From positions 32,881 to 96,880 of the forward strand of contig CAVPXM010000054.1 of the NCBI GenBank assembly GCA_963709405.1: DNA of 64,000 nucleotides. Reading direction: 5' to 3'. Each line of letters begins with the position of its first letter. The stretch's first letter is position 1. The DNA comes from an uncultured Nitrososphaerales archaeon (GTDB lineage: Archaea > Thermoproteota > Nitrososphaeria > Nitrososphaerales > Nitrososphaeraceae). Of the stretch, positions 10,089 to 32,011 are shown one piece after another. The notes beneath the pieces were generated by a model. It did not search any database. It saw only the letters and a program-made list of their open reading frames with translations, and was not told where the DNA came from. The position numbers were made by a program, and so were the translations under genes.

Positions 10089-11083
10089 TTACACAGATAG
10101 GTTACATTTTTGATTACCTACATGGGTTACACTTTGCTGCTTGTTCTTGTACGTACGGTGGATGTAATTAATCTTTAGAAACATCTCTGATGGAGTAAGG
10201 CCATTTATTCCTCCATGTTCTCTGGTTTCGTTATATGCTTTAACAAAGATATCATATCTTATTTTACCATCATCTGTGTTTGGTATATCCTCAACTGCTA
10301 AAAACTCATTCTTTACTATCTTGTTATATGCTTCTACCTTTCGTTGTAACTGTGGATAGGAATTGGGTATTTGCTTATCCTTTATCTGATTGTGTACAAG
10401 AAAACGTCTAAATATTTTGGATGTAAACTGTTTTCGATTATCATGCATTATCTTTCTGGGCTTGCCATTAATGATTATCCATTCTTCCAGTACGTTAATA
10501 ACATCTACTGACCTCTTTCTTTCAGACCACTTGCTAGCTACTTTTCTTGAACAATCGTCCAGACAGCTAATGATGTAATTCCTTTGACTAGAATTACTCA
10601 GATAGAAAGGTCCAAGGATATCCAACTGCGCACCTGTACCATATCGTTAGGTCGTTTCATTGCAAACCTTTTGTATATTTTATTATTCCTTGTCTTACAG
10701 TTTAGAACATTTAGACCATGTCTCTTTAGTATCTTGTATAAAGTTCGAGTGCTTAATGAGATTCCAACAACCTTTCTTAATCTAAACTTGATCCTATTAC
10801 ATCCAAATCTCTTGGTTAATCGTAGATCAAGTATTGTCTCCTGTATTTCAGATGTTATCTTCTTGTACTTGATATTATGAGGTCTTCTTGAGTTATCGGA
10901 TAGACCTTCTGTTCCTTTATGTTCATATCTCTTATTCCATTTGTAATACGTCTTCCTGGAGACACTATACTTTTTACAAATATTGCTTATGGTGTCACCA
11001 GTCCATTCTTTTTCGTGGATTAGGTTGAATCTAGTTATGATTTCTATATGTATACACTTCCTGACAGCAGAAGTGTAACCCAT
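10089..11083 (-). pseudogene. IS481 transposase, frameshifted near 10625
   Basis: HTH (SRKTYYKWNKRY..GLSDNSRRPH) and DDE core (QMDILGPF, DDCSR, KVEAYNK); short insertion relative to copy 2. Confidence 0.88.
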
Positions 11084-11159
11084 GTCTGTAATCCATGTGA
11101 ACTATTTTAAGGATTTCTGTTTTTCTTAATCTTAGTATAGTTCACCTCTGTTTACATAC

Positions 11160-11295
11160 ACATCCAGTAGTTTTTTCGGATAGTAATCCATTCGAGGCTC
11201 ACCCTCACTACCGTCTTTATCCATTTGTTAAGGAGATGCCACAGTTAGCTAATCGAGGCTTCACCCTCATACAGACAGTCGTGGTTAACACCTTA
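11160..11295 (-). ncRNA. Predicted bridge/seek RNA of the IS1111-type element
   Basis: Two GAGGGTGA(A)GCCTC hairpins each flanked by segments matching target (TGTCTGTA, TAGCTA) or donor (ATGGATTA) junctions; RNA ends approximate. Confidence 0.75.
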
Positions 11296-11329
11296 ACTAT
11301 AATGATAATAATAATTGAATTAATCATCA

Positions 11330-12388
11330 TCATCCTAACCTCTCATACATTCGTCTTTCTTTCATAATCCAATAAGCAACCTTCAGCAATTTGGCTGCAG
11401 CAGCTACAGCAGCTTTAGAATTACCTTTCTTTTTTGCTATTCTATAATAGAACTGAGCTATGTTACTATTCTTTTCAGTGCGAATATGTGCGTGAACACA
11501 TTCTAGCATTATCCATCGTAAGTATTTGCTACCTGCCTTTGTTATGCTGCTTCCATAATGTGTTACTCCACCAGAACTATGTGTTGATGGTACTAGACCT
11601 GCGTACGAACACAAGTGGTACGAATCAGGAAACCTATTGATATCTCCAATTTCACTAACGATTAACAAAGCTGAATAATATCCAATACCTGGAATCGTCA
11701 TCAGTAATTTAGCGATCTCATCTTCTTTAGCAAGCAGTAGTATCCTCTTAGATACAGTATTAACTTCATCATTCAACGATTTAATAACACGAAGACAACC
11801 ATTAATTCTATAATCATCATATCCTTCTAGTTTATCCATATTCCTTCTGGTAAATGTACTGGTACGATCGACATCTGAGGCCTCTATACCCTTCATAAGC
11901 GTAATGCTATGTACCTTATTCTTTAGTTTAGTTCTCATTCTTACAAGTGCGGATCTATGCCTAACAATGTCTCGTAGTTCCATTATTCTTTTGTTTGGAA
12001 CATAGCATTCAGCTATGTATCCTCCTCTCAGTAGATCAGCTAATTTAACCGCATCAAGTTTGTCGGTCTTTATTTTGGCCGAGGCAATAGCTCTTGTCTT
12101 GGTTGGATTGGATAATCGTATATCTAGGTGTCTCTTTCTCAAGCATTCATAAATGTTGTACCACATACCAGACGATTCCATTACGACCTTAGCGTTATTG
12201 CCTGGACTGAGACTATCGAAGAATTCATTCACTTTTATCAGGTTATTGTCTACTCTAGAATTATCCAGTACCTTTCCTTTTTCGTCAAGAACGGCTACCT
12301 GTAGATAGTTCTTGTGAACATCCATTCCCACAAACATACTCTTCTTACATACGCTACCGTCTGCTTTAGACTTACATAATTCGTTCAC
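11330..12388 (-). CDS. IS110-family DEDD recombinase/transposase, apparently intact
   Basis: GMDVHK, VVMES, KTDKLDA, TIPGIG, SEIGDINRF, YAGLVPSTHSSGG (catalytic Ser), GSKYLR; alternative ATG start at 12337. Confidence 0.95.
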   Translation of the reverse strand: MNELCKSKADGSVCKKSMFVGMDVHKNYLQVAVLDEKGKVLDNSRVDNNLIKVNEFFDSLSPGNNAKVVMESSGMWYNIYECLRKRHLDIRLSNPTKTRAIASAKIKTDKLDAVKLADLLRGGYIAECYVPNKRIMELRDIVRHRSALVRMRTKLKNKVHSITLMKGIEASDVDRTSTFTRRNMDKLEGYDDYRINGCLRVIKSLNDEVNTVSKRILLLAKEDEIAKLLMTIPGIGYYSALLIVSEIGDINRFPDSYHLCSYAGLVPSTHSSGGVTHYGSSITKAGSKYLRWIMLECVHAHIRTEKNSNIAQFYYRIAKKKGNSKAAVAAAAKLLKVAYWIMKERRMYERLG

Positions 12389-12546
12389 ATATAGTTAGCT
12401 ATAATGTCACCTATGTTAGGAAGTACAACAGCTAACCAAACCAATTTATCGTGTGCTATCCACAAGTACTATCATTGTATTTAGATTTCAATCTAAATCT
12501 AATAACAGCTTGCCACGACAAATAACTCGATACTAATTAACGTATT

Positions 12547-26442: not shown

Positions 26443-27480
26443 TGTTGTACTTACACAGATAGGTTACATTTTTGATTACCTACATGGGTTACACTTTGCT
26501 GCTTGTTATTGTACATACTGTGGATGTAATTAATTCTTTGTAGAAACATCTCTGATGGAGTAAGACCATTAATCCCTCCGTGTTCTCTAGTTTCGTTGTA
26601 GGCTTTTACAAAGATATCATATCTTAGTTTTCCATCATTTATGTTTGGTATATCTTCTATTGCTAGGAACTCATTCTTCACTATCTTGTTATATGCTTCC
26701 ACTTTACCCTGAAGCTGCGGATAGCGATTTGGTATTCGTTTATCCTTTATCTGATTGTGTACAAGGAAATGTCTGAATATGTTAGATGTAAACTGCTTTC
26801 CACTATCATGCATTACTCTATCAGGTTTGCCGTTGATCACTATCCAATCCTCTAATACATTAAGAACATCTACTGACCTCTTCCTTTCAGACCATCTGCT
26901 AGCTACTTTTCTTGAACAGTCGTCTAGGCAGCTAATGATGTAATTCCTTTGACTAGAATTACTCAGATAGAAAGGGCCAAGGATATCCATCTGTACCATC
27001 TCATTTGGATGCTTCATGACAAACCGTTTGTAAGTTCTTGTTTTGGCCTTACACTTGAGGATATTAAGCCCATGTCTCTTTAGTATCTTGTATATGGTTC
27101 TGGTGCTTAATGAGATTCCAATAACCTTTCTCAATCTAAACTTGATCCTGCTGTACATCCAAACCTTTTGGTTAATCGTAGATCAAGTATTGTCTCCTGT
27201 ATTTCAGATGTTATCTTCTTGTACTTGATATTATGAGGTCTTCTTGAGTTATCGGATAGACCTTCTATCCCTTTCTGTTTGTATCTGTTATTCCACTTGT
27301 AGTAAGTCTTTCTGGATACACCGTATCTTTTACAAATATTAGATACTGTATCACCAGTCCATTCTTTCTCATGTGTTAGATTAAACCTTGTATTGATTTC
27401 TATATGGATTCACTTCCTGACAGCAGAAGTGTAACCCATCTGTGTAAGCTATAATGTCACCTATGTTAGGAAGTACAACA
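26443..27480 (-). mobile_element. IS481-family element copy 2 (transposase disrupted)
   Basis: TGTTGTACTT / AAGTACAACA IRs; perfect 6-bp TSD ATTACT (26437-26442, 27481-27486); DDE ORF 26451-27158 with the HTH part out of frame. Confidence 0.93.
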
Positions 27481-28098
27481 ATTACTACATAAATAAATTC
27501 GAACGCTTTATAGTTCTTCGTTACATAGGAAAAAGATACGTGCGTGGTGGCACGGATGGTGAATTACCGATTCTCCAGTGGTAGGGCTCCCTCGTCCTGG
27601 TACTGGAATCTGTGTATAAATCTTCCAGAAAAAAGTTAAGCTCTCTACGTTCACGATCTTCTTTAAAAACAGAATCTCATTTTCCCATCTACAGATGCTT
27701 CTAAATGACGTACATTCAAAGATTTGACGGGCTAGGTTTCAAAACTGGAATGAAATTATGTGAATGGGCTATTCATTTAACGATTTGTAATTGCTTGTCA
27801 TGATAACCTATCCACAAACTAGGCATGTGTCCACACACTCCCACCAACCATAAAATTGGCTTTTGGACATACTTGTCAATCAGCGACAAATACTGCTTTG
27901 TTGCATAATTCAGAAAGATCGTCATCTTGCAATGCTTTTAGTACTTCTCAGGAATAGGCCAAATGCGGATTACTCCTTTTTAGCTGAATGTTTCAAAGTT
28001 AGTTGACTAATATCGGATTCGTGCATCTATGTAAAAGTCCCTCCATGGCTAGCATATCCTACTATTATCTAATGCTGCCTAGACCAGTCTTTATTATC

Positions 28099-29189
28099 TT
28101 AGTGTTGGATCCTCTTAAGTTTTGTTTCGTATAGGCCAATCTTTCTTTCATTGTATAGTTTCTTGTATGTTAGCATATGCCACATTATAGTGCATATCTT
28201 ATTTGCAACATGTGTTATTGCAATGTGACGCCCATGTCTTTTGGCCAGCCTTAGATAGAATTTCCTTAATCTACTGTCAGTTCTAGATGCAGTATTGGCT
28301 GCTTCAATTAATATCCATCTTACCTTTTTATTACCATCTTTCATCCTTCCCATATACAATGGGTTTCCAGATTGATGTACTGATGGACATAATCCAGCCC
28401 ATGATACAAGTTTTTGAGGTGAACTAAATCTGTTAATATCGCCAATTTCAGATGATATCATCATTGCAGAGAAATAATTTATTCCTGTCATACTCATCAA
28501 TATTTTAACTGATTCATTATTTGATGCGTCTATCCTTTCTTTGATTCAATATTTTTGATCTCTGTAGTAAGAAATTCAATCTGCTCAATGTACTCATGCA
28601 GCAAAATCTGGTCATTGCCAGTTACTTTTAGATCCCTTAGCCATTGTAATCCCTTTATTCCAAATATCTTGGAATAATTAAAGTTCATATCATCATATTT
28701 ATCAAGTAATGAATGTGTTCTATTAATTACTCTGGTTCTATCCTGTACCAAATTTGTTCTTAGCCTGAGTAATGACCTATCTCCTCTAGTCTCTCTGTCT
28801 GCAATGTAACATTCAGCTACAACAAGATCTGATCTAAGTAGATGTGCAAGTGTTCTAGCATCAAGTTTATCGGTCTTTATTATTCTTGCCTCAGCAATGG
28901 CCTTAGTTTTCAAAGGATTAGCCAGTTTAACATCAATATTATGTTTCTCAAATGCCTGGTATGTCTTTAGCCAAAGGTTACCTGTAGATTCACAGACTGC
29001 TTTAGACATACCATCACCATGCTTCCTCTTAATGGATGAAGCAAATGATTCAGCTTGTTCCAACGTATTATTGTAATTGGTTTCTTTGATTATGGAACCA
29101 TTCGAATCCATTATACAAACTACACAATTCCGTTTTCCAATATCTACTCCTATATAGTTCAGTGATCCTTTCTTTTTCCTATGTGGTAT
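28099..29189 (-). pseudogene. IS110-family recombinase, frameshifted near 28530
   Basis: YIGVDIGK, VCESTG, KTDKLDA, SEIGDINRF, WAGLCPSVHQSG; GGAGGTGA SD followed by ATA at 29189. Confidence 0.9.
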
Positions 29190-29224
29190 CCTCTTTTCTC
29201 ACCTCCTTCTCTTTTTTTCAGTAT

Positions 29225-29345
29225 GGATAGCTGGACTAAGCTGCATACATCTATCAGAGCTCGAGGCTCACTTTGACAGGAGCTTGTAGGTACGCCCCAT
29301 TCAACAGACTAGACCTATGTGGTCATGCACGATGAGGGGTCAGCT
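29225..29345 (-). ncRNA. Predicted bridge/seek RNA of the second IS110 element
   Basis: Loop 1 TCGTGCA..TGTTG matches target; loop 2 CTGTCA..ATAGATG matches donor junction; shares GTGAGCCTCGA with the first RNA; ends approximate. Confidence 0.72.
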
Positions 29346-30279
29346 AACCATATTGATTATAGAGGGCGACTTTTACATGTCTTTCAACAAAGCAACAAAT
29401 ACGACAGATTAAAATGGCTATGGTTGGAATATTTGACGTCTCCTTAATTATAGATGTAAATTTCATATTTTTGTATCAGATTTACGTGTTCTAAACACAA
29501 ACTTCAATCCCCAGAAGAATTTGGATCGCAGAGTTGGAATCATACCTAGCGTGCCGCGATTGCTGCGGGCCGACACATCATATCTGATATTCACCACTAG
29601 CTATATGATGACATTGTTTAAGTTGGACTTACTGTTGCGTAACGGATAGACAATGAGAAATCAAAATTTAGAAAGATCTTTAAGTTTGGGTAATTCAATG
29701 ACGAAGTTAATCTACCATCACCTATCTGCTTGTCATCACAAAGAATTTTTGGACATTTCTTAAAATTATCTCAGAAATTACTATATTATTCGTATATGCA
29801 CTTGATCTTCAGCTTTTAATAATGCTAAGTCCGTAGTTATTGCATCTTCTATATCATTAATTGATCCATGTATAATAAATTTATAGGCCTTTGCACTTTT
29901 TGTGTTAGATGTGTATCACTACGATCCGTATAGAAAATCCGAATCTCCCTTGAGGCCCGGTGGCATAAGCTCGCCGATTGTTCCGACAACGTATTCATGG
30001 TCGATTTACAGAATAATCGAATACAAAAGTTCACACACACAAATAATGGTGGTTTTATAACGAAGTGTTTTTTCTGCAATTAATCGTTTTCGACATTTTG
30101 ATTTATCTGCCTGATAAAGGAAGATACTGAATCACGATTTACATATTCTGATTTCATTTGTGACAAATAATCAGTTATTATTGTCTACTTGATAGATGAT
30201 AATGTTGATCCTAACAACACTATAGATCTAATAATCTATATTGGTAGTGCCTATTAAAGTCGTTATGATATTCTAATTT

Positions 30280-31611: not shown

Positions 31612-31720
31612 TGCTTTATTGCACGAATCTGATACTAGTCAACTAACTTTGAAAAAATTCAGTCAAAAGATAGCAATCCTTATCTGGCCCATTCCTGATA
31701 GGTGTTAAAAGCGTTACGAG
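31612..31720 (+). repeat. Dispersed non-coding repeat; uninterrupted homolog of the IS110 target locus
   Basis: Aligns by eye in inverted orientation with 27925-28025 joined to 29387-29394. Confidence 0.8.
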
Positions 31721-32011
31721 ACTTAGAAATATTGCAAGTCATGTACTCTACAGTCTGATCATGTCAGTCGAATATTTCATATTGGTTATGGTTTATATGT
31801 TTACTTCAGAATTTATGAATAGATTAGATATGCAACAGAATGGGACTACTGATGATGATAATAATAATGATTTAACAATGAAGATAATAATATTAAGAAA
31901 AAAGGAAAATTGAAAACCATAGTATTGTTGCCAAACGTTAATGATTATGATACTGGTGAAGATAACTTGACATGAATGCTTATGAGCAAACACCTATTGT
32001 TAAAAATACAA

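Follow-up and report, generated by a model that had tools for sequence, protein, structure and literature searches.

The 64,000-nucleotide stretch of DNA analysed here (the window, positions 32881-96880 of contig C54 in the 4.83-Mb, 100-contig genome of an uncultured, ammonia-oxidizing soil archaeon of the Nitrososphaeraceae) carries on its minus strand a 1,361-bp element, at 28026-29386 (equivalently 28024-29384), that is very probably a decayed copy of an RNA-guided insertion sequence (IS) of the IS110 family with a DEDD recombinase. Its layout is mixed: the repeats and the order of the guide arms are IS1111-like and the RNA lies upstream of the gene as in IS110-type elements, a combination that is unusual but not unprecedented. 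An initial annotation had described an IS110-family element with readable guides at this place. Pfam domains and covariation with the flanking DNA bear this out, and the covariation of guides with insertion sites, which was looked for among homologs, is present at three levels of divergence.

The ends of the element were mapped by comparison with empty sites. BLAST of the region against the genome showed that the other copies share exactly 28019-29394 with the window copy and that the 126 bases to the left belong to a separate repeat. Ten of the ten other copies of this left-flank repeat are uninterrupted, running through GGATTCGTGCA into ACAAAGCA (ATAAAGCA in one of them) and then into unique DNA. 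The empty site is therefore TCGTG-CA-ACAAAGCA, the element occupies 28026-29386, and the core is CA on the plus strand, or TG in the element sense; one CA is found in the empty sites as opposed to two in the occupied site. The junctions and the CA/TG core proposed initially were thus arrived at independently. In all copies insertion is site-specific and in a single orientation relative to the terminal inverted repeat (TIR) of the target; the core dinucleotide is shared, and no more of the target is duplicated. The features of the ends and of the target are as follows.

28024-28025, minus strand: core dinucleotide, copy at the right-end junction (CA on the plus strand, TG in the element sense)
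28026-28039, minus strand: right end, made of the spacer AGA (28026-28028) and the 11-bp subterminal inverted repeat ATGTAAAAGTC (28029-28039)
29368-29384, minus strand: left end, made of the spacer AAAGAC (29379-29384) and the 11-bp subterminal inverted repeat GACTTTTACAT (29368-29378)
29385-29386, minus strand: core dinucleotide, copy at the left-end junction, placed by the empty-site comparison
27894-28025 plus 29387-29394, unstranded: target, a miniature inverted-repeat transposable element (MITE) of ~140 bp whose last 8 bp are displaced; inverted-repeat tips TGCTTTGTTGCA(T/C)(A/G)A
29387-29394, unstranded: the displaced last 8 bp of the MITE tip, ACAAAGCA; the left target in the element sense is TGCTTTGT

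The right terminus, GACTTTTACAT-AGA in the element sense, is identical in 13 of the 13 elements that have a right end. The subterminal inverted repeats, 11 bp long in the window copy, measure 12-15 bp in homologs, compared with a range of 7-17 bp in the IS1111 group. The insertion point lies 8 bp inside the inverted-repeat tip of the MITE, between TGCTTTGT-TG and CACGA, and both position and orientation are fixed within the TIRs of IS5-type elements and their MITEs. About ten near-identical copies of the MITE in the same genome span the equivalent of 27892/4-28025 before running into ACAAAGCA, and the genome contains 60 TIR ends of this type. Relatives of about 1 kb code for a DDE transposase of the IS5 type (DDE_Tnp_1, L078). 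In the window, 31620-31721 is a second, diverged copy of the MITE. The IS481-like (rve) element at 26451-27158 was also considered as the target and was rejected: it ends near 27480, and the flank is the separate 140-bp MITE. IS481-like elements, with an rve integrase core and a helix-turn-helix, have two copies in the window, at 10089-11083 (frameshifted) and at 26451-27480; since dozens of copies are present, nested insertion sequences are very abundant in the genome.

The gene of the element is that of an IS110-family transposase, present as two halves.

28530-29198, minus strand: N-terminal half, DEDD RuvC-like domain (PF01548, DEDD_Tnp_IS110, E 1.8e-28)
28099-28500, minus strand: C-terminal half, Transposase_20 domain (PF02371, E 6.5e-23) with the motif GLCPSVHQSG

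The motif aligns with the stretch GLTPRRYESG of IS621 (the SG motif). Having both the DEDD domain and Transposase_20 with its SG motif, the element belongs to the IS110 family in the broad sense, with a gene that is broken in the window copy. The two halves sit in different frames; the frame break maps near 28537, behind which relatives from metagenome contigs have one extra base. The start codon, found in copy C18 as ATG-AAA-AAG (MKKKGLLNYIGVDIGK), is replaced by AGG at 29180-29178. The window copy has therefore lost both start and frame. It can no longer make the transposase and is decayed and non-autonomous. No intact gene was found in the copies examined in the same genome: C18 contains stops, C44 lacks the start and the right end, and the rest are fragments. 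A protein search identified intact homologs with 60-69% identity in other genomes of the family; these have the same repeat and an upstream non-coding region (NCR). Only about 60 bp separate the stop codon from the right end. Solo left-end fragments without a gene were observed at G000:C61:33983-34103, C44:8071-8100 and C21:214022-214066; they hold either the RNA region or just the last 30-45 bp with the target tip and may be deletion remnants or orphan RNA copies.

The NCR lies upstream of the gene in the window copy, in 18 of 18 aligned members of its clade and in ten elements of a sister clade. Read in the element sense, the left end begins with TG, AAAGAC and the repeat ATGTAAAAGTC, followed after ~27 nt by a CCCC stem strand, the arm UCGUGCAU, a hairpin, the arm UCUGUUGAA and the GGGG stem strand. 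A second unit then follows, composed of the arm CUGUCAAAGU, a hairpin GAGC...GCUC and the arm UGAUAGAUGU, and after it an A-run, GGAGGTGA and the gene. The components of this region are listed below.

29236-29343, minus strand: two-loop region resembling a bridge RNA or seekRNA (match to covariance model R1, 111.2 bits, E 1.8e-21)
29325-29332, minus strand: target loop, 5' arm UCGUGCAU, pairing with the top strand A-TG-CACGA at the right junction
29312-29324, minus strand: hairpin between the target arms, GACC-ACAUA-GGUC; closing stem CCCC (29336-29339) with GGGG (29295-29298)
29300-29308, minus strand: target loop, 3' arm UCUGUUGAA, in the same sense as the left target (5 nt), TG and the first 2 nt of the left end, with TGT-TG-AA at the left junction; it would pair with the bottom strand
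29275-29278, minus strand: donor loop, 5' arm UGUC, pairing with GACA of the left end (29381-29378)
29248-29254, minus strand: donor loop, 3' arm AUAGAUG, identical to the final 5 nt of the right end followed by the TG core

The two-loop region is conserved in the 18 aligned NCRs, and its consensus fold agrees with the initial proposal that each pair of guides flanks a hairpin. The strings on which that proposal was based are all where they were said to be: 28019-28026 (TCGTGCAT) and 29325-29332 (ATGCACGA) are exact reverse complements, 29300-29306 equals 29383-29389 (TTCAACA), and 29248-29254 equals 28024-28030 (CATCTAT). A compensatory pair was found in the closing stem, where C-G is changed to A-U in L031 and L032. 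The R1 model, built from the RNA of this element and comprising 123 positions, matches sequences in 20 of 151 genomes of the family and seven places in the genome that contains the window. Contigs from three RNA libraries, with 90-99% likeness, cover parts of the element including 29265-29394.

Comparison of copies within the genome revealed single-base changes shared by flank and guide. The right target is CACGA with the arm UCGUG in the window copy and CATGA with UCAUG in copy C18, flank and guide having both changed; pairing of the 5' arm across the right junction is Watson-Crick at 8 of 9 positions in the former and at 9 of 9 in the latter. On the left side, the target CTCTGT occurs with UCUGU in C18 and C60, and CTTTGT with UUUGU in C44 and C61. 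All four match the left target and core at 7 of 7 positions, with the variable base covarying. The two positions that vary in guide and target are the two pyrimidine (Y) positions of the TIR consensus. In soil RNA and DNA library contigs, compared at window positions 29330 and 29334, the C18-type guide base is present at 29330; both guide states therefore occur in environmental relatives.

The same relationship holds among the homologs of 60-69% identity. Right-junction pairing, examined in 13 of them, is Watson-Crick at 7-9 of 9 positions in 11 elements, often with one G:T pair at the core T, and at 5-6 in two (L060 and L028). Over six positions of the right target, cognate guides and targets pair at 5.19 positions on average, compared with 3.82 for non-cognate combinations, and the cognate figure is not attained in any of 20000 permutations. 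Identity on the left side (19 elements) averages 4.53 of 5 for cognate and 3.90 for non-cognate combinations (permutation p ~1e-4). The informative cases are homologs whose targets differ from the usual tip: L058 has the right target GTCC with GGAC in its guide, and L059 the left target TCTAT with UCUAU. The right flank of L058 is unrelated to the usual TIR but matches the element's own guide arm. In the sister clade (42-44% identity), where another repeat, ATGAAAATCT, is found in the same layout, the left junction is matched at 9 of 9 positions within the NCR in seven of ten elements and the right junction with at most one mismatch in eight; nine of the ten have the top-strand match followed by the bottom-strand match. 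The NCR thus contains segments that are complementary to each target strand, overlap at the core and covary with the target, as in bridge RNAs and seekRNAs. Taken alone and set against the empty site, the window copy gives matches modestly above chance (both core-spanning matches are attained in 40 of 5000 dinucleotide-shuffled NCRs). It is the comparative data that are decisive.

The second loop is likely to be complementary to the joined ends of the element, as judged from its sequence. Its 3' arm, AUAGAUG (29254-29248), is invariant in 18 of 18 aligned NCRs and matches the right end plus core at 7 of 7 positions; in the sister clade, AUGGAUG accompanies the right end ATGGA-TG. Homologs with ATACA at the left end carry UGUAU in the donor 5' arm, and in the sister clade C or T before the repeat goes with G or A in the RNA in ten of ten elements. 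For this arm the initial annotation had chosen a match at 29274-29279 (5 of 6 positions), which falls in about the right part of the RNA but in a register that homologs do not support. When this register was compared with the core-proximal left end, homologs with a different spacer did not keep it, and it is UGUC/GACA that covaries.

A first IS110-family element occupies ~11092-12393 of the window and interrupts the 5' untranslated part of an IS481-like (rve) element; at more than 40 empty sites in the genome, 11091 runs directly into 12394.

11330-12388, minus strand: open reading frame of the first element, IS110-family transposase of 352 aa

This element has a short left end, subterminal repeats of ~9 bp and a downstream NCR of 238 nt, an IS1111-type layout. 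Its right flank reads GTTAGCT as against GTAAGCT in the empty sites, and the exact position of its TA core is therefore not fully clean. As the initial annotation pointed out, the RNA is 3' of the gene in this element and 5' in the 1,361-bp element, and the guide order (top-strand match, hairpin, bottom-strand match) is the same in both, the arms of the first element being at 11277-11270, 11251-11243 and 11191-11184. The difference in RNA position between IS110- and IS1111-type elements had already been published (PMC11208160 section 12; PMC11187229 sections 6, 9, 12). The annotation went on to describe the two RNAs as related scaffolds and the elements as a natural reprogramming pair. This reading would make the 1,361-bp element a recent derivative or reprogrammed partner of the first, its scaffold having moved from 3' to 5' of the gene within the lineage of this genome. 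The common arm order, the similar arms of the donor (LD) type (AUGGAUUA, with ATGGAT-TA, in the first element and AUAGAUG in the other), the shared IS-rich genome and an 11-mer common to both RNAs (GTGAGCCTCGA; 51 of 5000 mononucleotide shuffles reach a match of at least this length) speak for such a descent. We nevertheless consider it improbable. The transposases are 35% identical and fall in separate clades, the 1,361-bp element joining its sister clade with support 92/94 and, at the next node, two haloarchaeal plasmid homologs with 88/92. The R1 model finds nothing in the NCR of the first element at E<=10 with filters off, nor is that NCR among the seven matches in the genome. The shared string TCGAGGCTCAC is indeed present, also at 11192-11202, but only GTGAGCC is conserved in the clade of the 1,361-bp element (18 of 18), and its structural position differs between the two RNAs. 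Given the low identity, the separate clades and the failure of the covariance model, these are two lineages with one architecture and not a reprogrammed pair. The natural retargeting that is visible is that among the 1,361-bp element's own copies and homologs. The tree excluded the fragments L042 and L051 and all partial hits and was built without IS621 or the ISfinder set; because of this and of the long branches of IS5075 and ISEc45, it does not place the clade in either IS1111 or IS110. One of the haloarchaeal relatives, L077 (Natrinema plasmid NZ_CP082247.1, 517716-518720; 36% identity), in sister position in the tree, carries the 13-bp inverted repeat TATGAGAATCTGC on either side of its gene at a distance of ~190 nt. 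This sequence resembles ATGAAAATCT of the sister clade, and the layout fits the type with NCRs on both sides described for ISHvo10.

Several observations weigh against RNA guidance of the 1,361-bp element. On its left side the window copy combines a CTTTGT flank with a UCUGU arm, which gives one mismatch (T in the flank, C in the guide at 29307). Two intact homologs, L028 (G190:C420) and L058 (G213:C32), keep TG at the left junction and show AG in its place at the right one; the AG junctions may be traces of recombination at a core-mismatched site. The right flank of L060 fits its own guide poorly. The permutation p-values given above exaggerate the independence of the data, since guide and target are passed down together among related elements. 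The donor 5' arm extends over just 4-6 nt beside the repeat without reaching the core; since it is short and off the core, the donor loop is likely but not settled. Structural covariation is thin, with a compensatory change in one of 24 predicted pairs, and RNAalifold also permits pairing between the two target arms. At gathering score, the only Rfam family matched in the window was a tRNA, and nothing matched at E<=10 in 29150-29420. Finally, the evidence from RNA libraries consists of contigs, which tell nothing of strand, ends or transcription and may come from carried-over DNA; they carry no weight in either direction. One might then suppose that the choice of target depends on the protein, or on DNA-DNA recognition involving the subterminal repeats and the tip of the host IS, and that the matches inside the element are relics with no role as RNA, such as junction sequence that was captured, an explanation that gains from the RNA-library evidence being limited to contigs, from the modest excess of the window copy's matches over shuffled sequences, and from all observed targets being variants of one TIR family, whose choice a loosely specific protein could also explain, but that is rendered improbable by base-for-base compensatory changes in both arms at three levels of divergence, the unusual targets of L058 and L059 included, and by the arms occupying the loop positions used in experimentally proven relatives (PMC11208160, PMC11187229).

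If the element is an RNA-guided insertion sequence, as we conclude, its mode of action can be sketched by analogy with IS621, ISEc11 and ISEc21. The NCR would be transcribed as a bridge RNA or seekRNA, perhaps only from the circle junction, and the RNA would bind the recombinase and use one loop to pair with the target and the second to pair with the ends that abut in a circular intermediate. Strand exchange would then occur at the TG core without target duplication. A TATAAT at 29362-29357 was considered as the promoter of the RNA and set aside; it is absent from homologs. With the usual archaeal promoter spacing, an RNA driven by TATAAT would start inside the first arm. That a promoter for the RNA forms at the junction is a guess. 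A wider picture can be offered only tentatively. It would comprise a lineage of bridge recombinases common to the Nitrososphaeraceae, and perhaps to a larger part of the archaea, in which an IS1111-type RNA module, its arm order reversed and its subterminal repeats long, is placed directly behind the circle junction; the guide RNA would have been relocated independently of the IS110/IS1111 split, its expression tied to circularization through an archaeal promoter made at the junction, and single-base natural retargeting would take place among TIR variants of IS5-type elements.

For the genome in question the element is a matter of ordinary annotation, a dead IS nested in a MITE. Its interest lies elsewhere. 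It provides a clean natural data set in which guide-target and guide-donor covariation can be followed at three levels of divergence, with single-base retargeting seen within a single genome. RNA position, as it also shows, is not necessarily coupled to arm order and subterminal repeats, which bears on the origin of the IS110 and IS1111 layouts. Intact homologs in the relatives G212, G213 and G194 are candidate compact bridge recombinases whose host is mesophilic and AT-rich. Publications already cover the mechanism class, both RNA positions (Siddiquee 2024, Durrant 2024), natural retargeting and the reversed arm order (PMC11208160; PMC11187229), and archaeal IS110 recombinases have been counted (10.1101/2024.06.21.599552). 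No published description of archaeal bridge RNAs and no published arm order for IS1111-like elements with an upstream NCR were found in the literature searched; the supplements of PMC11187229 and PMC11208160 may list archaeal or upstream-NCR IS1111-like elements together with their arm order.

Among known systems, the IS1111 group (ISEc11, ISKpn4, ISPa11, IS4321/IS5075; PMC11187229, PMC11208160) resembles the 1,361-bp element in several features: subterminal repeats (11 bp, within the 7-17 bp range), a terminal extension between repeat and end, a transposase of ~355 aa with the GL-P----SG motif, and the arm order with a hairpin between the arms. In IS1111-type seekRNAs the top-strand match comes first, 5' of the bottom-strand one, and the reverse is true of ISEc21, which is of IS110 type (PMC11187229 sections 9, 12); the order found here was assigned to IS1111 on this basis. 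Like IS4321 and IS5075, which according to a reference cited in PMC11208160 enter the TIRs of the Tn21 family, the element inserts into another mobile element's inverted-repeat tip, always at one position and in one orientation. Identity to IS5075 is 25% over residues 110-318 (62% of the query; E 1e-11), a very distant relationship. The element differs from the IS1111-group examples in its archaeal host and in having its RNA upstream, not downstream, of the gene. The upstream location is the IS110-group position in PMC11208160 and PMC11187229. The IS110 group (IS621, ISEc21; PMC11208160, PMC11208158, PMC11187229) also shares with it an NCR directly behind the circle junction, the two-loop logic, a 2-nt core within the arms and the DEDD plus Transposase_20 domains. 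The arm order of the 1,361-bp element is reversed relative to IS621 and ISEc21, in which the bottom-strand match is 5', and its repeats are 11 bp long as against 2-3 bp or none, which sets it apart from the IS110 group of the IS621/ISEc21 type; phmmer relates its transposase to IS621 only in the C-terminal part (E 1.7e-6). Comparable in layout, going by their description, are the exceptions noted by Siddiquee et al. (PMC11187229 section 6), for which the passages concerned in the main text give no arm order: ISMtsp17, a member of the IS1111 clade whose NCR is upstream, and ISHvo10 and ISAcp5, which have a long NCR on each side of the gene, all of which combine IS1111-like ends with an upstream or double NCR as the element described here combines such ends with an upstream one.

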